Shown here piece by piece: positions 4,446-54,220 of a stretch of DNA of 64,000 nt. The notes under the pieces were generated by a model. It saw only the letters and a program-made list of their open reading frames with translations. It ran no database searches and was not told where the DNA came from. A program made the position numbers and the translations under genes. This DNA comes from an uncultured Acidobacteriota bacterium (GTDB lineage: Bacteria; Acidobacteriota; Terriglobia; Terriglobales; Acidobacteriaceae), in assembly GCA_963720155.1 (NCBI GenBank), contig CAVREP010000016.1:4847-68846 (forward strand), read 5' to 3'. The first letter of the stretch is position 1. Each line of letters opens with the position of its first letter.

Positions 4446-7160
4446 TTACGGTTTGGACTCTTGCAGGAGCACAACGTCGGAATCGGTGTGGCCGCGGATC
4501 AAACCCAGCTTGCTGCCGTCGAAAGACCAGTGAAGCTCCATGATGTGTTCCGACTTGAAGTCGGTGATCTGCTTTCCCGGCGAACCGTCGAGAGGCTGGA
4601 GCCAGAGGTTATCAGCGTCTTGGTCAGGGAAAGGATAAACGACAGCTTTGCCATCAGGGGTGAAGCGGACAGTCCACTGGACCGGGCGTTGCGGGTCCAG
4701 AAGTTTCGTATTCTGAGGAGAATCGACTGAGACCAATGCCAGCTGTTGCTTAGGATTGCTGGGAGACCCAACGGTTGAAAAAGCTGCCAGCTTGCCGTCT
4801 GGAGAAATGTCGAATCCGTATGCCGGAAGCTCGGAGATCCTTTCCGGCTTCCCTCCTTCTAAAGGCACCCTGGTTAGCTTTGCGCCATTGGCTAAATCCG
4901 AGTAGTACACCCATTTTTCATCTGGAGAACAGATCGCAAATTGGTCCATTTTGCCGTCACTCAGCTGTTTAAGGTTCCCGCCGCCAGCGTCCATCCGCCA
5001 GATGGTTACCGTTCTCACGCCGCCGTGGAGGCCAATCGAGGACACCACATAGCGGCCATTTGCGCACGCCGAAGGCTGAAACGCCAAGCCATCCTGCTGC
5101 GGCGAAGTGAGCGGCGTCATATCTCCACTGTCAGGGTGGAAGAGGTTCAGGGCATCCTGTCCGAGAATCATTTGGCCACCTGGTGTCCAGGCAAAGCTGC
5201 CCACGCGAGCCCCGGAGGTGAGATGCTTCGCTTGGGCGCCGCTCAGGTCAGATGCGGGGGCCACGAAGAGATCGAAGTGATCCTGTTTTAGAACGGTCGC
5301 CAACATGCGCCCATCGGCGGAAAGACTAAGGTCGGAATAATCGTTGACGTCGTGAGTGACACCGTGAGATTTACGGTCTTGATCGGAAATTTCTACAATT
5401 TGCTGGCGAGTGAAATTGGTTTCTCTGCCGGTATAGAGCGCCAGCAAACCGGCGCCATCGACCAACCACGCGGGGTGCGACAGACGCCCGTCTTTGGATT
5501 CGAAGATAAGGTTTTGTTTGCCGGTCATTGCATCGACCGCCACCAATCCGCTGATGGCATCTCTTGGTTGAACGATCACGCAGATAATCGTCTTGCCGTC
5601 GGGCGACCAGGCCGGGTCGTACAAGGATTGATTCATGTTACCGGTAACCAGCGTTTTCCCCTCGCCGGTTTCAAGGGAATAAACTACCAGGCGGAACTTG
5701 CCCAGTTCCGGGTTATTTTGCACGACATATGCAAGACTGCGGCCGTCGGGGGAAAAGGTGATGTTCGTGTCCACGTCGGTGATGAGCTTTTGCGGAGTGC
5801 CACCCAGGACCGGCGCACGATAGAGGTAGTGCAGTAACTTCCCCATCTCCCCGCGGACAAAGTAAAGGTAATTTCCATCGGGAGAGAAGCGTACACCTAT
5901 ATACCGCAACGGCTCGGGAGGCATGACCTGAGTGTTGCTGTTCGTAGGAACGTTCCGTAGCCACAAGCTCTGCTGCCCTTTGTCACCCACGACACTCAAG
6001 ATGTATTTGCCATCTGGAGAGATGGCTGCCCGCGTAACCTTGCCGGTCTCTGTAATCTTGTTGACGGAAAAACTCTGAAACGGAATAGGCCGGGTACGAG
6101 AAAGGAAAGCATAGATGCCATAGGCGGCAGCTGCCACCAGCAAAACGACGATTACGCTGGTGACGCCAATTCCCACTTTGTGCTGGCGTGCGGCGGCCAC
6201 CACAGCTGAACTGCTGCTCGTGTGCGCGGGCTCGGCAACTGCTGGTGCCGAGGCTCCTGATTCTGCGCTCACTGCCGGGACTTGGCGACTGGACTCGGTG
6301 TCACGCCTTAGCCGTTGCAGATCGGCCCGCATCTCCGCCGCACCCTGATACCGCAGATTGCGGTCTTTCTCCAGTGCCTTGCTAATGATCCGTTCCAGTT
6401 CAGCGGGCAAATCAGGATTCAGCCGCACCGCAGGCGTGGGAGCGGCGTCCAAAATGGCTTTAAAGATGACTGCGGAACTCTCTCCACGGAACGGCAACTG
6501 CCCTGTGGCCATCTCATAGAGGACGACTCCAAACGAGAACAGATCAGTCCGGGCGTCCAACTCTTTCGCCCGTGCCTGCTCCGGCGACATATAAGCGACG
6601 GTTCCCAGTGCACTGCCAGGACTTGTCAGATGTTCCTCGGACTCGATGGTCAGGGCGCTCATGGCAACGCTCGCCTGCGTGAGGGAAACCTTGGCCAGCC
6701 CGAAATCCAGAATCTTGGCGTGGCTGTGCTCGGTCACAAAAATGTTCGCAGGCTTTATGTCGCGATGAACAACGCCCTTGGCGTGCGCCGCATTCAGAGC
6801 ATCGGCAATTTCGGTAGCGAGCGATAGAATCAGTTCGGTTTCCAGCGGACGCCCCGCGATGCGGTGCTTCAGCGTCAGGCCATCCAGAAACTCCATGGCG
6901 ATAAAGGACTGGTCACCGTGCTTGCCGATGTCGTAAATGGTGCAGATGTTGGGGTGGTTCAAAGCGGAGGCGGCACGAGCTTCACGGCGGAAGCGTTCCA
7001 ATGCCTGCGAATCTTGGGACACGTCATCGGGCAGGAACTTGAGCGCAACGAAACGACCCAGCTCGGTGTCCTCGGCCTTGTAAACTACGCCCATACCGCC
7101 GCCGCCCAACTTCTCGACGATGCGATAGCGCGAAATGGTCTGGCCGATCACTCGCGGCAA
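4446..7160 (-). CDS. Ser/Thr protein kinase with C-terminal TolB/PD40-like beta-propeller (paralog)
   Basis: 904-aa ORF. Kinase domain is about 80 percent identical by eye to the neighbour ([16 protein letters not shown]). TM segment [21 protein letters not shown]-repeat propeller. The track start is TTG 7160; alignment with the paralog (MIGQTIS) favours GTG at 7151. Confidence 0.9.
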
Positions 7161-44753: not shown

Positions 44754-44960
44754 CTAACGCTGCCGCAGTCGGCGAATCCTGGGAGAGAAATTAACCTCCA
44801 GACACTTCGAGCAAGGGCACCTGAACGCCGTATCGTTCGAAAAGACAATGTGGCCGCAGCTTTCGCAAATCAGCTGCCCGTTGGGGAGAACTTTCATCGC
44901 CCTGAATCCCTTGCCCAAAACACAATAGGGACAGCAGGTTTCCTTCGGTGTCCTCTTCAC
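44754..44960 (-). CDS. small zinc-ribbon-like protein
   Basis: 68 aa with CCPYC..CESCGH..CPCSKC cysteine pairs. GTG start behind GAGG. Confidence 0.5.
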   Translation of the reverse strand: MKRTPKETCCPYCVLGKGFRAMKVLPNGQLICESCGHIVFSNDTAFRCPCSKCLEVNFSPRIRRLRQR

Positions 44961-45028
44961 CTCAAACCTCAGATTCGCTAGCGAGGGTACGACTCGTGCG
45001 CCGGCGACGGCAATACAGTGAATTGAGT

Positions 45029-45056
45029 AATTATGCGTTGTACATAGATATGCGGA
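45029..45056. repeat. RIT1 inverted repeat, left
   Basis: AATTATGCGTTGTACATAGATATGCGGA. The reverse complement of 53510-53537 matches with 3 mismatches. Confidence 0.8.
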
Positions 45057-46415: not shown

Positions 46416-47323
46416 GCGACGCTGTCACTCGCCACATCGAACTGCATCGCAGCATGGGATTCAAGTTCAGAGACGAGGCGTATATGCTCCGAGGTTTTGC
46501 CGCTTTCGCAGAAAGTCGGTCTGAACTTTTCGTTCGCACGGAAACAGTTCTGGAGTGGGCGGCCAGTGCGCCTTCGGTCAGTCGACGCCATGATCGCCTG
46601 CGCACCATCCGTCGTTTTGCATATGCCTTGATGACGGAAGACGACCGTCATCAGGTGCCACCGGACGATGCTTTTGGCCGCGCACAGAAGCGGCATCGAA
46701 AATGCCATATTTTTGTTCAGGACGAAATCAACCGCCTTCTGCGAGCCGCCGCACAACTGAAACCGAAGGGATCGATACGGCCAGCTACGTACGTCGCCTT
46801 GCTTTCGCTCATCGCGGCCACCGGACTCCGCGTTTCTGAAGCCTTAAAACTACAGGTGTCCGATATCACTGAAGACGGGTTGCTCATCCGTAAAACAAAA
46901 TTCCAAAAGAGCCGTTTGGTTCCTCTGCATGCGAGTGCGCATCAGGGATTGCGGCAGTATCTCGTCGCACGCGGGAGAATCAGGATAACCACACCGAATG
47001 TCTTCGTTTCCCAGCGCGGCGCTGCACTCCCGTACGATACGGTCAGCAAGACTTTCCTCAACTTGGCGCGATCAGAAGGCCTGCGCGAAGGTCCGGGGCA
47101 TGGCGGTTGTCATATTCACGATATTCGCCATACATTCGCCGTCAGGTCGCTCGAACAGTGTTCGAGCGACCGCAGAGCTGTCGCGCAACATATGGCCGCG
47201 CTGAGCACCTATCTAGGTCACGCTCATGTCTCCGATACGTATTGGTATCTGCAGGTCACGCCGAAGCTTCTGGGCGACATAGCACTGGCCGCTGAGATTC
47301 TACACAGGGGAGGTGAGCAATGA
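46409..47323 (+). CDS. ritB: tyrosine recombinase RitB
   Basis: 304 aa. LRVSEAL, HDIRHTFA, LGHAHVSDTYWYL. Overlaps the ritA1 stop, and its own stop overlaps the ritC1 ATG (ATGA). Confidence 0.85.
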   Translation: MLSDAVTRHIELHRSMGFKFRDEAYMLRGFAAFAESRSELFVRTETVLEWAASAPSVSRRHDRLRTIRRFAYALMTEDDRHQVPPDDAFGRAQKRHRKCHIFVQDEINRLLRAAAQLKPKGSIRPATYVALLSLIAATGLRVSEALKLQVSDITEDGLLIRKTKFQKSRLVPLHASAHQGLRQYLVARGRIRITTPNVFVSQRGAALPYDTVSKTFLNLARSEGLREGPGHGGCHIHDIRHTFAVRSLEQCSSDRRAVAQHMAALSTYLGHAHVSDTYWYLQVTPKLLGDIALAAEILHRGGEQ

Positions 47324-48099
47324 ATCCCCTCGGTCCGCACCTGACAGTATTCCTGCGCGAATACCTTCCAAGACAACGTGAAATGAGCGCACAAACGTCC
47401 GACACGTATGCGTATGCCTTCCAACTGCTGGTGTGTTTCGCTGCCAAGCGCCTGAAGACGACTCCTTCTAAGCTCTCCATCGAGCAACTCGATGCGACAC
47501 TCGTGTTGGCTTTCCTCGAAAGCCTCGAAAAAGAGCGGGGAAACTGCGCCAAAACACGCAACTCACGACTAGCCGCTGTCAAAACGTTCTTCCGTTTCCT
47601 GGAATACCGGTTACCGTCCTGCCTTGATCAGGCCCGACGAGTTCGCGCTATCCCGGTGAAGAAAACCGACGAGGTCATCGTCGGTTTTCTCAATCGCGAG
47701 GAGATCCAGGCTTTGTTGGATGCTCCTGATCCAAAATCCCGATACGGGTTGCGGGACCGCGCCATGCTTTATCTTGCCTATGCTTGCGGACTGCGTGTCT
47801 CGGAACTCGTCTGTCTACACATGGATGATTTAGCCTTCCATCCTCAACCGACGATTCATGTGATGGGAAAGGGCCGACGCGAGCGGGTGCTGCCGCTGTG
47901 GAAAGAGACAGCCATAGCGCTTCGGGATTGGGTTAAGGTGCGAGGCGAGACAAAAAGTGGAGCTATATTCCTGAACGCTGGTCACGAGGCTATGACCCGG
48001 TCGGGATTCGAATACATTCTGGCCAAGCACGTTCAGACTGCCAGCGTCAGGCAACCTTCGTTGACCAGAAAGCGAGTATCACCTCACATCATGCGACAC
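47320..48099 (+). pseudogene. ritC: tyrosine recombinase RitC, 5' part (interrupted by RIT2)
   Basis: Sensible up to ..VMGKGRRERVLPLWKET..KRVSPHIMRH (codon CAC 48097-48099). The following 45 codons are RIT2 end sequence. Confidence 0.85.
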
Positions 48100-48122
48100 T
48101 ATCTACCCTTCCTGACTATGTC
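48100..48122. repeat. RIT2 inverted repeat (ritC-proximal end)
   Basis: TATCTACCCTTCCTGACTATGTC, the exact reverse complement of 53176-53198. Confidence 0.9.
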
Positions 48123-48223
48123 GAGTGATATGGAGTGGTCTGGCGATCGTTCAATAATTGCAGACCCCAACGCAAATCGAGTCGATCAATCACCCGACAT
48201 AGTTTTCCCCGTTTTTCTCTGCT

Positions 48224-48644
48224 CTACAAACTATTGAGGAAGCCAAGCAGTTGGTCTCCCGGTTGGTAGCGCCCCGGTCTGCCGTGCGACGGTGATGTTT
48301 TGGCAAGGGCCCGCTCCTTCATTGCGAGTGTGGCTTCGAGATAAATCTGCGTGGTCTCCACCGACTCATGTCCGAGCCACAATGCAATAACGGAACGATC
48401 CACGCCCGCTGGTAGAAGGTCCATCGCCATCGTGTGCCTCAGGCGATGAACGGTGACCCGCTTTTCCTTCAACGACGGGCAGACTTTGGATGCTGTCGTG
48501 CGATGCTTGGTCAGCAGGTACTGCACACCGTGGACACTGAGACGTTCACCCTGAGCGCTGGGAAAGAGCAAGTCGTCGCCACCACGTTGCGGTTGTCGAA
48601 GCCAGGCTTTCAATACAGCGAGTGTGGATTGGGCAAGAGGTGTG
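48224..48644 (-). pseudogene. ritC: RitC2, 3' part
   Basis: ..CTPLAQSTLAVLKAWLRQ..KRVTVHRLRHTMAMDLLPAGVDRSVIALWLGHESVETTQIYL.. Continuous with 50318-50895 once 48645-50317 is removed. Confidence 0.85.
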
Positions 48645-49382
48645 GTGCAGCGATGCTAGCTGCCATTCTAGCGGGTGCAAGACCCGCCCGTGGAACTTGC
48701 CCAGTTGCCACGGTAGCAATATCCGGCGGTGAAACGGGAGACCAATTCACCGGAAGCCCGGAAGTAAAAGCCCCCGTTGGCCGAGCAGAGATGCTTGGTC
48801 GGATCCGCCAGGGGGGCAAACAACTCGACAGGTCGTAACGCAAGTGAACCGTAGTTAAGCTCCGAAATAGCCCCCCACGGGAAGCGGATTGTGGGAAATG
48901 ATGGAAGTGCCGAGTCGCTCACGCTATGACGAAGGCCAACGTCGACGGCGAAGGAACTGGGTACATGCAACCGTCGAACTTCCTGGAGTCGCAGAGGACG
49001 ACATGTTGAGACAGAATGGTCAGCGAAAGCACGGAACCACTCCCGGGTCGCCTAGGCGCACCCGCACAGCGAAGGCATCGCATATAAACCGCCCTGCGGC
49101 GAAACTGCGTTGTGCCCGAGAGTGGGACGGATGTGGCCGAATAAGTGTTGATGGACTGGGACAACATAACCCAGACCGGAGCGAGGGCCACTGGGGTAGA
49201 AGAGGGAACTCTTCGCATGGTGGTGTGTCGTTAGCCCCTCCTTCCCGACTCTGAGCGGGAGTTCAAGGAGTAGGCCCGATGCACGAAGGACAGAGGCAAA
49301 GCAAGCGAACCGCTGAGCATGCCGGGTGCAGGCTTAACCAGCGGGACGTGCGCGAAGGCGCTGTCTGACAGGCCAGCCTTTC

Positions 49383-49414
49383 AGCCGTACTGGGGTAAAC
49401 CCACTGTACGGAAT
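49383..49414 (+). ncRNA. group II intron domain V (outer copy)
   Basis: AGCCGUAC-UGGG-GUAAA-CCCA-CU-GUACGG. AGC triad at the 5' base and a 2-nt 3' bulge. Confidence 0.75.
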
Positions 49415-49440
49415 GATAGGGGGGACGGTGGAAACGTCGG

Positions 49441-50277
49441 GTGCAGCGATGCTAGTTGGCGTTCTAGCTGGTGAGAGTCCAGCCAGGGGAACTTGCCCAG
49501 TTGCCCCTGTAGTGATATCCGGCGGCGGAGCGGGTGACCAATCCGACCGGAAGCCCGGAAGTAAACGTCCACGTCGGCTGGGTGAAAACCTAGTCAGCTC
49601 CGACAGGTGGGCTAGCAAATCAGCAGGTTGTAGCGAAAGTGAACTGTAGGTAAACCTCGAAAACCACCGCCCCACGAGAATCGGAGGGTGGGGAGCCTCG
49701 GAAGTGCCGAGACGTCCGACGTAGTCGAAGGCCAGTGTTGTCGGTGAAGGAACTGGGTGCATGCAGCCGACAAACTTCCCGTGGTCGCAGGGGACGACAT
49801 GTTGATAGAGGACAGCCAACGAAAGCACGGAACCACTCGTGGGGCGCCTAGGCGCACCCGCACAGCGAAGGCATCGCCTATAAACCGCAAGCCGGCGAAA
49901 TGGCGGTGTACCCACGAGTGGGACGCATGAGGCCGATTAAGTGAGGATGGTCCGGGACAACATAACCCGGACCGGAGCGAGGGCCTCTGGGGTAGAGGAG
50001 ATTACTCCTCGCATGGCGGTGCATCTTTTAGCCATCCTTCCCGACACAGTGCGGGAGTTAAGGAGCATGGCCCGGATGCGCGAAGGACGGATGCAAAGCA
50101 GGCGTTGCGCTGGGTATGCCGGGTGCAGGCTTAACCAGTGGAGCGAGTGCCAAGGCGCTGTCTGATAGGCCAGCCTTCCAGCCGGACTGGGGAAAACCCG
50201 CTGTCCGGAATGATAGGGAGGACGATGGAAACATCGGCATCATTCGAAGCCCGATTAGCGCCATCGTCCTACCCGAC
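49441..50277 (+). mobile_element. ORF-less group II intron (inner, 837 nt) inserted in domain VI of the outer intron
   Basis: 5' GUGCAGCG. EBS1 CCGACGU and EBS2 CCACCG are perfectly complementary to the upstream flank. Domain V at 50180. Domain VI 50216-50228/50261-50274 with bulged A 50271. 3' ..ACCCGAC. Confidence 0.85.
50180..50211 (+). ncRNA. group II intron domain V (inner copy)
   Basis: AGCCGGAC-UGGG-GAAAA-CCCG-CU-GUCCGG. Compensatory change relative to the outer copy. Confidence 0.75.
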
Positions 50278-50317
50278 CATCATTCGAAGCCCGCTACGCG
50301 CCACTGTCCTACCCGAC

Positions 50318-50895
50318 CAGCGTTCTTTGCGGCCCTTGCCGATCACGCGCAGGTGAGCCCCAGTCCCAACGATGAGGTCCGCGCGTTTGAGACCGGTCAT
50401 TTCCGATAAGCGTAGGCCCGTCTGTACCGCCACGAGCAGAAAGGCGTGATCGCGCCGACCAGACCAGGTGAACTGATCCGGAGCGGCCAGCAAGGCATCG
50501 ACTTCGGGGCGAGTGAGGAACTGGACCAGGGTACGGGTGAAACGCTTGCTGGGGATGGCGAGCACACGCTGGATCTGTGCGGAATGGGCAGGCGACTCGA
50601 AAGCCGCGTATCGAAAGAAGGAGTGAATCGCTGTCAGGCGCAGATTACGACTGCGAATACTTACGCCTCGGTGCTTTTCCAGTTCATCCAAAAAAGCCAC
50701 GATCAGGGGGGCATCAATCTCCTCGAAGGTCAGGCGTGATGGCGGTTTGCGAAGCCGCTGCTGAACGAACTTCAGGAACTGTCGGAAGCAGTCGCGATAG
50801 GAACTGATGGTGTGTGGGCTCGCCTGACGCTGCTGCATCAAGCGCTGGGTAAAGAAACGCTGCAATAGGGGAGCCAAGCTGATGGGAGTGATCAT
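50318..50895 (-). pseudogene. ritC: RitC2, 5' part
   Basis: MITPISLAPLLQRFFTQRLMQQR..LRVIGKGRKER. ATG 50895 overlaps the ritB2 stop (ATGA). The frame runs into intron sequence after 50318. Confidence 0.85.
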
Positions 50896-51836
50896 GTCCG
50901 GTCCTCCCAGCGATGCTCGAGCCGGCGCATGGCTTCCCGCATCAACTCCGGAGAGCCGCTTAAATACCACTGCGTGTCCGCGACATGGACATGACCGAGG
51001 TAGGCGCACAAGATCGGCAGGAGGCGCTCTGGATCTTGGTTAGCCCGATACCACGTTACCAGCGTGTTGGTTGCGAATCGGTGTCTCATGTCATGCAGAC
51101 GTGGCCCGTGATGGTCGGATATGCCGCGCAGACCGATCTGCCGGGACAAGGCATAGAACGTTCTATGAATCTCTCCGCCATCCAAACGATTGCCCCAGTT
51201 GGAAACGAACCGGTAGGAGGAGACCTCTCGTCCCGCCCAATGACGTTGCCGTCGTGCGAGGTAGTCGGCAAGTACTTTGCAAGTCGATGCGTGCAAAGGC
51301 ACGAGTCGAGACTTGCCAAACTTGCCGCTGCGGATGGTCAACACCGCCGCCTTAAGATCCACGTCATGAAGCTCGAGACTGCGCGCTTCACCAAGGCGTA
51401 GGCCAGAGACACTCAGGAGTCCAAACAGACAATAGTAAGTCCAAGGTCGCAGTTTGCCGAGTTCACAACGACAGGGCATGTCGAGAGTAGCGCGCAGTAA
51501 ACGCCGAATTTCATCGTCCGAGTACAGGTAGGGCCGCGCTCGCCTCGGTCGAAATGGCAACAAGCCTTGGTGGGGAATCTGCGTTCGCGGATCGGTCGCA
51601 CTACGATGGCGGGCAAATCCACGAACGAAACTCAGCCGTTGCGCCCAGTGCGCGGGTTGGACGTTTATCGGTTGTTGAGCCCAAGCGAGCGCCAAGGCTG
51701 TGGTGATGTAGGAAGTGCGGTGGCGCTCCATGAAGGTGACGAAATCGAGCAATCCCTTGCCTGCATGCTGCAGCTTGAACCCCAAGCTACGGCGCAGACT
51801 CAGGTATTCTTGAACGGCCTGTCGAAGCGTGTTCAT
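50892..51836 (-). CDS. ritB: tyrosine recombinase RitB2
   Basis: MNTLRQAVQEYL from ATG 51836 (ATGA overlap with the ritA2 stop). LRLGEA, HDMRHRFA, LGHVHVADTQWYL. Confidence 0.85.
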   Translation of the reverse strand: MNTLRQAVQEYLSLRRSLGFKLQHAGKGLLDFVTFMERHRTSYITTALALAWAQQPINVQPAHWAQRLSFVRGFARHRSATDPRTQIPHQGLLPFRPRRARPYLYSDDEIRRLLRATLDMPCRCELGKLRPWTYYCLFGLLSVSGLRLGEARSLELHDVDLKAAVLTIRSGKFGKSRLVPLHASTCKVLADYLARRQRHWAGREVSSYRFVSNWGNRLDGGEIHRTFYALSRQIGLRGISDHHGPRLHDMRHRFATNTLVTWYRANQDPERLLPILCAYLGHVHVADTQWYLSGSPELMREAMRRLEHRWEDRT

Positions 51837-53071
51837 CGCACACCTCCCGGCCACGGCAAAGCCAGCGTACGCAATGCCTTGATGTCAACCTTGGTGTAGA
51901 TCTTGGTGGTCTGTGGATGGCGATGGCCGAGCAACTCGCCAATCTCGCTCAGCGAAGCACCTTGGCGCAACATCTCGGTGGCCAATCCATGGCGAAACTG
52001 GTGAGCCCCTGAGGTTGTAGCCTGGATGCCGGCACGCTGGAGCGCGTGCCGAACGATAGAGGCAACGCCACTCACCCCGCGAAAAGCGCAAATCGGGGCT
52101 CTGGCTCGTAAGAATACGCGGCGGCGGGTGCTATGGGGTCGTCCTCGCCGCAGGTAGGCAGCGATGGCTTTCCCGACCTCTGTGGGCAAGGGCAGTCGGT
52201 TGCGCGGACCACTCTTGCCGCGCACATTTACTTGTCCCAGGTTCCAGTCAATGTCACCGAGTTCGAGAGATACCACTTCCCCTGCCCGCAATCCCAATCG
52301 CGCTAGCATGAGCAAGATGGCATAGTCTCGCCGCCCAACTGCAGCGCGACGATCGATACTGGCCAGGAGTTGGCGTACGTGGTCCGCGGAAATCGCTCGG
52401 GGGATCGATGTCATCGACCAGTTGGCAACGATAGGAACGGCGGGGGCCAGATCAAGCGTGACCTCCCCGAGATATCGCGCGTACTGCAGGAAGGAGCGCA
52501 ATGCGGTGGTCATGAGCTTCGCCGTCTTCCTGTGCAGTCGTGGCGCTTGGCGCGGCACGAACCTTACAACATCGCTTGCACGCAGACGCGAGAGCGTGAC
52601 TCGTGCGGAACCGAAACTGTCTTTGAGAAAACTGCGAATGAACGGAACGTAGTTGACGATTGTCGGGCGGGCCAGTGCGCGTACTTCCAGTAAATATTTC
52701 CCGAATGCTTGGGCACAATGCTCAGCCGGAGTCGGTTGGCATGCCAATTTCTTTTCGCGGGGGATCACGCCCTCGCCGCGCAAAAAGCCGATGAGATGCT
52801 TGAGGGCAGCGGCGTCCCCCCGGCCAAGTCGTACGTGTCGAGCGCGATATCGCAGATACCGTGCCGGATGATCGGAGCAGAGGCTGCGCAGTCCAACCCC
52901 GTTCTGCTGAAGCCATCGGCTAAAACATGCAGCGAGCAAAACCTGTCGATGAATCGATGCCAAACTGTATCCCTGCTTACTCACCGATTCTGCAAACGAG
53001 CCGATTTGTGCTGCGAGCGGCCCTTCCGGCGCTCGCGATAGAACCACTTGGTTGTTGATGATGCACTTCAT
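51833..53071 (-). CDS. ritA: tyrosine recombinase RitA2
   Basis: 412 aa. LRAGEV, FRHGLATEML, LGHRHPQTTKIYTKV. Confidence 0.85.
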   Translation of the reverse strand: MKCIINNQVVLSRAPEGPLAAQIGSFAESVSKQGYSLASIHRQVLLAACFSRWLQQNGVGLRSLCSDHPARYLRYRARHVRLGRGDAAALKHLIGFLRGEGVIPREKKLACQPTPAEHCAQAFGKYLLEVRALARPTIVNYVPFIRSFLKDSFGSARVTLSRLRASDVVRFVPRQAPRLHRKTAKLMTTALRSFLQYARYLGEVTLDLAPAVPIVANWSMTSIPRAISADHVRQLLASIDRRAAVGRRDYAILLMLARLGLRAGEVVSLELGDIDWNLGQVNVRGKSGPRNRLPLPTEVGKAIAAYLRRGRPHSTRRRVFLRARAPICAFRGVSGVASIVRHALQRAGIQATTSGAHQFRHGLATEMLRQGASLSEIGELLGHRHPQTTKIYTKVDIKALRTLALPWPGGVR

Positions 53072-53175
53072 GGTGGACTCCTTCCCCGACTCTGCGGGCT
53101 AGTACAAGGAGCTCAGAATATGTCTATACCGCCTCAAGTAGAAGCCCTGGAAATCGGGCCCTCGCAGATTTACAA

Positions 53176-53198
53176 GACATAGTCAGGAAGGGTAGATA
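53176..53198. repeat. RIT2 inverted repeat (ritA-proximal end)
   Basis: GACATAGTCAGGAAGGGTAGATA. Confidence 0.9.
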
Positions 53199-53232
53199 GT
53201 GGCGCCTATGTCTCTGGGTACATAGCAGGCAC

Positions 53233-53445
53233 TCATGCGCGATGCACACTTTGCAGGCAACTGGAGATATTCGGAAGGTTGCTCTCTGGCTTGGGCACGC
53301 CAGTCTTCAAAGCACGGAGGTCTATCTCCGAGCCGATCCCGCCGAAAAGCTGGAGACCATAGCGTCATTGGTTCCCCCTGCTTTACGACGCGGTCACTTT
53401 CGGCCCCCGGATAAGCTACTCGCCATGCTTCGGCCGGAAAAGTGA
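53233..53445 (+). pseudogene. ritC: RitC1, displaced 3' part
   Basis: In phase with 47320-48099. SCAMHTLQATGDIRKVALWLGHASLQSTEVYLRADP.. completes the HxxR..GH..Y region. 780 + 213 nt = 331 codons. Confidence 0.8.
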
Positions 53446-53509: not shown

Positions 53510-53537
53510 TCCGCATATCTATGGACGGCGCATAATT
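53510..53537. repeat. RIT1 inverted repeat, right
   Basis: TCCGCATATCTATGGACGGCGCATAATT. Confidence 0.8.
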
Positions 53538-54220
53538 GCGCTTTTGCGCTGCACCGCAAAGCGCAAGGGGTTCGAGGGGCTGTACGGTCTGGTCCGGGAT
53601 CGACGATCAGCACAGGCAGGAAATCCAGAACTACGCCATCACGGGGACGACGCTGACGGCGTTCGCGCCGCAGCGCACGCAAAGGATTTCTCTAGCGGAC
53701 CTTGATATTTCAGCGACGACCAAGGCCAACGACGACCCGGAGTGGACTTCCGTGTGCCGGGTGGCGAAGGGCAGTAAATTCGTGTTTCCACGGCACGTAT
53801 CCCTTCGATCAGTCTCCCTACAACCGATCACCGGCACAATTAGCGGAACACCGCCACTTCTCCGGTGAGCGCAATGGCGATAACGGGATGGTCCACCGCC
53901 TGGCGGCCCCCACTGCTACCTAATAATCCCTTCCCCAGAAGGCTGGCACCCTCTCGGCCCTTTCTTCATTTGTATCGTAAGATCGTGCAATCCGGCTGCA
54001 TCCAGATGGCAATTGATCCCTTGTTTTCCGCCGCCGCTCACGACCGCCAGATTACGACCCAGTTTTCACGACGCATCTCGATCTAGAAAGACCTTCATGA
54101 ATAATGCAGGAATGTGAGCATCACGCCGCTATTTGAGACCTAGAAAGGTCGGGAGATTCGCACGCCATCCCTCCGGCAGCGTGTGCAATCTGCCAAGAGC
54201 GGGTCTTTCGCGGGTGGCGG

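Follow-up and report, generated by a model that had tools for sequence, protein, structure and literature searches.

A RIT element inserted at the Arg-His codons of a recombinase gene carries a 28-nt palindromic module that probably belongs to its mobile unit

Soil and plant-associated bacteria commonly carry RIT (recombinase-in-trio) elements, as do large plasmids; to our knowledge, the movement of these elements has never been reproduced. We analysed one such element, RIT2, in a 64,000-nt stretch of DNA from an uncultured Acidobacteriota bacterium of the Acidobacteriaceae (assembly GCA_963720155.1, contig CAVREP010000016.1, positions 4,847 to 68,846 of the forward strand; this whole stretch is hereafter called the window). 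RIT2 lies on the minus strand between two parts of the recombinase gene ritC1, which itself stands inside an outer element, RIT1 (Table 1). The 5' part of ritC1 matches positions 2-134 of the 172-position PF00589 profile, which places the cut in box II; the gene resumes behind RIT2 at 53233 and reaches its stop codon at 53445.

RIT2 is a RIT element, a known kind. Its ritA2 and ritB2 genes and both pieces of ritC2 are adjacent on one strand, all match PF00589 and, judged from their coordinates, show ATGA-type overlaps. RitA2 (412 aa) has ~120 residues ahead of a SAM-like domain at 121-198. NCBIfam holds no RIT-specific model and gave only sub-threshold Xer-type matches. The terminal inverted repeat is perfect over 26 nt (48097-48122 / 53176-53201, CAC...GTG) and 97% identical over 30 nt (48093-48122 / 53176-53205). 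Two group II intron copies, 83% alike and antisense to ritC2, make up 1673 of the 5133 inserted bases; their Rfam matches (RF02003 at 48669-48843 and 49465-49638) were the only ones in a scan of the region, which gave none at the junctions. With ritC2 split by these introns and no second copy found in the genome, the window copy is probably inert and immobile by itself. Inside the ritC-proximal end there is also a subterminal inverted repeat (ACTATGTCGAGTGAT / ATCACCCGACATAGT at 48115-48129 / 48189-48203), conserved in the copy on plasmid 2 of Aromatoleum aromaticum EbN1, which may be an extra recombinase binding site.

Table 1. Features of the nested RIT region, in window coordinates
Feature	Position	Strand	Basis or remark
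RIT1, outer element	repeats 45029-45056 and 53510-53537	+	
ritC1 5' part, 260 codons, ending ...S-P-H-I-M-R-H	47320..48099	+	ORF; Pfam PF00589
N junction core CGA CAC, Arg-His codons	48094..48099	+	CAC doubles as last RIT2 repeat triplet
RIT2 terminal inverted repeat, ritC2 end, CACTATCTACCCTTCCTGACTATGTC	48097..48122		repeat search
ritC2 3' fragment, box II and catalytic Tyr region	48224..48613	-	ORF; PF00589 profile positions 80-168
Two ORF-less group II intron copies, ~796 nt each, splitting ritC2	48645..50317	+	Rfam RF02003; direct repeats
ritC2 5' fragment	50318..50895	-	ORF; PF00589; start ATG at 50895 overlaps ritB2 stop
ritB2, intact	50892..51854	-	ORF; PF00589
ritA2, 412 aa, intact	51833..53071	-	ORF; PF00589
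RIT2 terminal inverted repeat, ritA2 end, ...GGGTAGATAGTG	53176..53201		repeat search
28-nt junction module GCGCC TATGT CTCTGGGT ACATA GCAGG	53202..53229		two inverted arms, 8-nt spacer
ritC1 His codon CAC (53230-53232) and 3' part SCAMHTLQ...LGH...Y...stop	53230..53445	+	

The original prediction, made from the letters of the window, had placed RIT2 in the codons of the HxxR catalytic box of ritC1. Indeed, the 5' part stops at ...H-I-M-R-H, and both junctions proved exact: CACATCATGCGACAC|TATCTACCC on the left (48099|48100) and GGGTAGATA|34 nt|TCATGCGCG on the right (53198|53199-53232|53233). As a refinement, the RIT2 repeat extends 3 nt further on each side (CAC at 48097-48099, GTG at 53199-53201), so that the first GTG of the 34 nt is repeat sequence. 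The best reading of the 34 nt is GTG as the repeat end, a 28-nt module, and CAC as the His codon of the target. The prediction had also pointed to a likeness between ACATAG..GGCAC in the 34 nt and the ritC1 sequence ACATCATGCGACAC, which is real, though modest, and A[CG]ATAG motifs do recur, in the 34 nt as well as in the terminal repeats. Read in frame with ritC1, the outer arm of the extra bases gives CAT AGC AGG CAC, an HxxRH-like box. An equivalent of this arm is carried by 45 related ends, and the target likeness is therefore not a chance feature of the window copy.

We then asked what the site looks like when RIT2 is missing. In 14 of 16 loci that encode intact RitC1 homologues (36-54% identity), the match ending at residue 260 runs straight into the match to the 3' part; of the remaining two loci, one has a two-residue offset and one lacks an adjacent 3' match. 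At the DNA level, a 3556-nt contig from the soil-metagenome run X10, which belongs to a study other than that of the best-holder runs, joins position 48096 to 53230 and skips exactly 5133 nt, with 7 differences over 356 nt on the left, none over 308 nt on the right, and 4 nt (CACT) at the joint that fit either side. This shows that an uninterrupted ritC1 allele without extra bases exists. RIT2 thus has a precise empty site with no footprint and no target duplication, and only CAC(T) is common to both junctions. The same run holds a 3427-nt contig of an intron-less RIT2 relative that starts at the equivalent of 48097 and ends at that of 53201, the CAC and GTG ends, and it is exactly at these ends that the sequence contexts diverge. 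Intron-less relatives were present in all four soil-metagenome runs compared, with 48644 joined to 50318 and the 1673 nt in between (48645-50317) absent.

Since no second RIT2 copy was found in the window's genome, the comparison was drawn from other genomes. A DNA search of 61 relatives from the genus and order returned a single, internally deleted copy in a genus relative (L004, G021:C348, 320-1543). That copy is ~90% identical, its deletion joins ritB to the 5' end of ritA, and it abuts a RitB-like flank ending ...R-L-H-D-L-R-H. The first clue to the junction pattern came from DNA relatives on plasmids at ~70-75% identity; the trios of pHG1 and of EbN1 plasmid 2, both plasmids listed as RIT carriers (PMC3414803), are 72-75% identical to RIT2 over 2.3-2.4 kb. 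In pHG1, two copies carry the same 34-nt palindrome with perfect 15-nt arms, followed by RitC-like 3' parts, and one left flank is RitB-like (...P-H-S-L-R-H). The element on EbN1 plasmid 2 stands between inverted 5' parts, each with the ending ...S-P-H-V-I-R-H. In Paraburkholderia sp. FT54, an element sits in a gene for an IS91-associated integrase, with the order ...M-H-T-L-R-H, element, 34-nt homologue, S-F-A-T-H-L-L.

For a broader survey, 78 related loci were retrieved by RitA2 similarity alone (59-91% identity; several phyla by their record titles). Repeat ends were located with a tolerant pattern, and 119 ends had enough flank to be read. An end was called N-type if an open tyrosine-recombinase frame, read inward, ended in H-x-x-R with the CAC of the repeat as the His codon, and P-type if the repeat was followed by NCGNC TATGT, 8 nt, ACATA GNCGN CAY and then the residues that normally come after RH. 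This gave 65 N-type and 45 P-type ends, with 9 that were neither; by chance, ~0.3% of positions would show the N-type pattern. Of the N flanks, 50 reached 60 aa or more; every one of these matched PF00589, with H, R and H as the sole invariant columns at their ends, and an open C-terminus with GH...Y was encoded in 38 of 44 P flanks. The interrupted genes are RitA-, RitB- or RitC-like, IS91-associated or Xer-like. At <85% nucleotide identity there were 56 distinct N and 34 distinct P flanks, and the target logo, CC. CAY ....T. CG. | CAY A(C/G). ... GC. A.., is degenerate at third codon positions; the survey thus covers many independent insertions, and these fall almost exclusively between the catalytic Arg and His codons. 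Among copies with both ends, 33 were N+P, 9 were N+N and 1 was P+P. The window copy is a standard N+P insertion with its P junction on the ritA side. The fixed-length direct target duplication of DDE-type transposition was not found, as there is no duplication and the two junctions differ in kind, one N-type and the other P-type.

A junction core shared by RIT2 relatives is thus present, as CGN^CAC. The broader suggestion that the element enters a site resembling its own ends stood for CGNCAC and a loosely conserved CAT upstream and for nothing further; beyond these, the target consensus is what the protein motif dictates. The proposal of a duplicated and since diverged crossover region as the origin of the 34 nt did not survive. 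Homologous palindromes stand at the same junction in relatives inserted within different genes, and the uninterrupted ritC1 allele lacks the 34 nt. Homologues at unrelated insertion sites were the result that the prediction itself had named as its refutation, and they mark the 34 nt as a part of the element and not as a duplication made from the ritC1 target.

Palindromic modules homologous to that of the window were found at 45 of the 119 related ends, and their targets include genes for an IS91-associated integrase and for RitA-, RitB- and RitC-like proteins. Module arms and spacer are lineage-specific. One genome has two near-identical copies (L061 and L062) that sit in different targets with an unchanged module. 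Arms differ between copies, and imperfect ones are frequent (10 of 13 in the window); the DNA hairpin fold of the 34 nt scored z = -2.3 in the window and z = -4.5 to -9.4 in three relatives. The module lies at the ritA end in 23 cases and at the ritC end in 22, and always on the 3' side of the target gene. Furthermore, genomes with copies in both orientations usually show it reverse-complemented. In Burkholderia sp. OK233, L068 and L079 have modules on opposite sides that are exact reverse complements of each other, including the asymmetric TATGT/AGATA; in a metagenome-assembled genome (MAG) of Chromatiaceae, the arms are swapped and complemented (L047 and L049 compared with L048); and between L009 and L010 the spacer is flipped. 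A reverse-complemented module in opposite orientations is what a closed form with the module between the two repeats predicts, and of the within-genome orientation comparisons, which are the informative ones, three agree with this prediction and one disagrees.

The junctions also narrow down where the exchange lies. The His codon was CAC at all 65 N junctions, against 29 CAC and 16 CAT at P junctions (Fisher p = 9e-8). This asymmetry indicates that the element supplies the third base of the codon at the N junction and that the target supplies it at the P junction, which places the exchange 5' of that base. CGN CA is common to the element site and the target. The NCGN of the target equalled that of the inner module arm in 7 of 31 N+P copies (p = 0.004) and that of the outer arm in 8 of 31 (p = 0.001), when 2.4 matches were expected from shuffled pairs; the two arms equalled each other in 10 of 31. 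The arms are always Arg-codon-like, about a quarter of them match the current target, and in one pair of copies (L034 and L038) the pattern is crossed. Such partial sharing is what a ~6-bp overlap (NCGNCA) with heteroduplex products, or a carry-over of donor bases like that of Tn554 and SE-type elements, would give. In the window, the outer arm reads AGG CAC and ritC1 reads CGA CAC; the arm was thus brought in, perhaps from an earlier target.

The predicted joint of repeat, module and repeat was present in three metagenome contigs of RIT2 relatives. One (L104) spans a ritC end, the module and a ritA end. The second (L105) has 3457 nt, 12 of them terminally redundant, and is one 3417-nt RIT plus a 28-nt module in circularly permuted order, free of host DNA. 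The third (L106; contig Ga0137418_10102841) has a head-to-head arrangement. Its first 366 nt consist of a repeat, ~300 nt of ritA-upstream sequence and a second repeat, beside the module and a full ritA end; this structure may be a miniature non-autonomous RIT derivative.

The two junction types in their frequency and diversity, the empty site, the repeat-module-repeat joints and the reverse-complemented modules were observed directly. On this basis we propose, with a probability of about 0.7, that the widespread RIT2 lineage consists of a core and a two-headed module that insert conservatively, from a closed form, into the box II codons of recombinase genes. The mobile unit would be the 3.4-kb core within its CAC...GTG inverted repeats together with the 28-bp module, which in the closed form, be it a circle or a tandem unit, would lie between the two repeats. 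The whole joint would then be a long palindrome with two opposed copies of the site A(C/G)ATAG-NCGN^CAC-TATCTACCC. Either copy could recombine conservatively with box II DNA (CAY NNN NTN CGN^CAY (A/T)SN NNN GCN), the exchange falling within ~6 bp (NCGNCA) and 5' of the third base of the His codon. One product junction would lead from the 5' part of the gene (...HxxR) into the CAC of the repeat; the other would consist of the repeat, the module and then the gene's own His codon and 3' part. The window has this two-junction arrangement, and this is why the 34 nt are read as GTG, module and CAC. We infer the closed form as the intermediate, as well as the exact cleavage points and a division of labour among RitA, RitB and RitC. 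With somewhat less assurance, we favour the wider view that this RIT lineage is a 'recombinase-gene hunter', with recombinases that recognise, as DNA, the Arg-His box of their own superfamily and integrate from a closed form with the two-headed 28-bp palindromic module.

Several points weigh against this proposal. The target and the element site share CGNCAC only, which leaves unexplained how box II is told from a random CGNCAC. L034 and L038, two copies in one genome, have the module in the same orientation on opposite sides, a pattern explained only if the core was also inverted between its repeats, and across lineages the orientation of the spacer did not correlate with the side. No circle joint or excision of the window copy was seen in the metagenome contigs compared, which cannot show absence. 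L105 could be read as a collapsed tandem array and not as a free circle, though core plus module is the repeating unit in either case. Read mapping in Sphingobium gave no circular RIT junctions (PMC5737581). Finally, many loci of the survey come from MAGs, in which repeats are open to misassembly, as may be the case in L070.

Four other explanations were considered. That the 34 nt arose as a diverged duplicate of the crossover region when RIT2 entered this ritC1 would account for the resemblance, in frame, between the outer arm and the ritC1 box (ACATAGCAGGCAC compared with ACATCATGCGACAC); we consider it highly improbable, because homologous modules occur at 45 related ends in unrelated recombinase genes with arms and spacers that ignore the local target, because the module is found between two repeats without host DNA, and because the near-identical L061 and L062 keep one module in different targets. 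Alternatively, the module could be fixed to one end of an element that inserts in a single orientation, and later inversion of the core between the identical repeats could switch its side. Such inversion is the usual outcome where inverted identical sites meet active tyrosine recombinases, and it would explain L034 and L038 with their same outward-reading module on opposite sides. Nevertheless, it cannot reverse-complement the module itself, as seen in L068/L079 and in L047/L049/L048, and the 23:22 split between sides would require inversion equilibrium everywhere; we therefore regard this explanation as unlikely.

A different intermediate is also conceivable, single-stranded or hairpin-ended, in which the folded palindrome of module and repeats makes the site, as in the attP of CTX phage or the attC of integrons. 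Module and repeats together form an almost perfect palindrome of ~80 nt, the fold of the module by itself scores as low as z = -9.4, and exonuclease-protected RIT DNA without detectable circle junctions has been reported (PMC5737581). On the other hand, the metagenome contigs hold a joint of the double-strand type and one whole permuted unit, though strands are not distinguished there, and the module arms are variable and often imperfect; we think such an intermediate improbable, to about the same degree as the core inversion. It could finally be argued that there is no target preference at all, and that a few old nested insertions were passed on by descent or that insertions survive only in dispensable recombinase genes. 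Some loci do duplicate a composite (L020 and L021 are duplicates of one, and L068 and L079 share target sequence). However, the 56 distinct N and 34 distinct P flanks come from diverse gene types across phyla, and every one of them is cut at one codon boundary, which selection for dispensability would not give; this explanation has very little chance of being right. Conservative insertion of core and module from a closed form thus stays our preferred reading.

Copies that depart from the N+P type can be placed in the same scheme. N+N and P+P copies and a solo module are as expected if a further recombinase gene, or another copy, recombines at the repeat/module site. EbN1 plasmid 2 has a solo junction palindrome with no element (L006, ~6791-6832). 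Two recombinase 3' parts flank it in inverted orientation, and a RIT with inverted 5' parts on its two sides lies 1 kb away; palindrome and RIT resemble reciprocal products of recombination at the inner site of the module. One N+N copy (L070, 5872-9290) has >3 kb of 100% identical inverted flanks on both sides, and from its sequence it could be a real giant palindrome or may be an artefact, a foldback of long-read assembly. Another N+N copy (L033) likewise has long identical inverted flanks, from a real structure or an assembly foldback.

The outer element appears to behave differently. The flanks of RIT1, examined for the same rule, encode no HxxRH, which indicates that box II targeting is lineage-specific. 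Directly outside one RIT1 repeat there is a palindrome (53538-53564, GCGCTTTTGCG - CTGCAC - CGCAAAGCGC), and RIT1 may have a similar joint with a different target. On its left, window positions 44900-45031 are 100% identical to G000:C48:45925-46056 up to ...GAGTAAT, and part from it where the RIT1 repeat begins; the C48 stretch may be a paralogous site without RIT1.

If the proposal is true, a target, an attachment site and a crossover region are defined for RIT elements for the first time, and a poorly understood class of transposons gains a defined target (box II Arg|His), a joint (the 28-bp module flanked by CAC/GTG repeats) and a narrow crossover interval, all now open to simple experimental testing. 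Many 'truncated integrase' pseudogenes beside recombinase trios would be targets and not decayed genes of the element, and on pHG1 and EbN1 plasmid 2 the arrays of nested, truncated RITs would be the outcome of RITs hitting each other. Stacks of mobile DNA like that in the window would follow from the box II rule, and the disabling of other elements' recombinases may shape competition among mobile elements.

RITs with a 28-29-bp inverted repeat, an 'overlapping palindromic sequence' and variable ends were reported in 2012, with pHG1 and EbN1 plasmid 2 as carriers of 'complex combinations' that include truncated RIT genes, and no target was proposed (PMC3414803). Exonuclease-protected RIT DNA was found in Sphingobium, and hairpin-ended forms were proposed (Nielsen et al. 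2017, PMC5737581). A 2023 overview table lists the target specificity, empty site and movement of RITs as not tested (PMC10214605, Table 1). As far as checked, neither the target rule nor the role of the palindrome is in these three papers; Ricker 2013 lay outside the comparison, and a full-text literature search on RIT terms returned nothing newer on targets.

RIT2 and its relatives resemble the known RIT elements (ritABC of Cupriavidus metallidurans CH34, C. necator pHG1 and A. aromaticum EbN1 plasmid 2; Van Houdt 2009; Van Houdt 2012, PMC3414803; Ricker 2013) in their trio of adjacent tyrosine recombinase genes with overlaps, in their length of ~3.4-3.5 kb and in terminal inverted repeats that span ~28-34 bp. 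They would differ from the known picture in that the truncated genes are targets cut at their Arg-His codons and the palindrome is the joint of the mobile unit. Tn554 and SE-type elements are likewise tyrosine-recombinase transposons with a site preference and no target duplication, and they pass on a few bases of donor flank, which the joint of the intermediate contains and which end up on the far side when the element next inserts. Such carry-over is only suggested for the RIT2 lineage, whose NCGN matches are above chance but partial. Unlike Tn554 and SE-type elements, RITs have symmetric repeats and a trio of recombinases; their palindromic joint is two-headed, and they insert in both orientations. 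The 'res hunters' of the Tn5053/Tn402 family, and other transposons aimed at features of mobile elements, likewise target something conserved among such elements; by doing so they leave host genes intact and are assured of travelling on transmissible DNA. These are DDE transposons, however, and use the resident resolvase-res complex as a beacon, whereas the RIT2 lineage would recognise a coding sequence as DNA, insert by conservative recombination and, in doing so, inactivate the recombinase of the other element.

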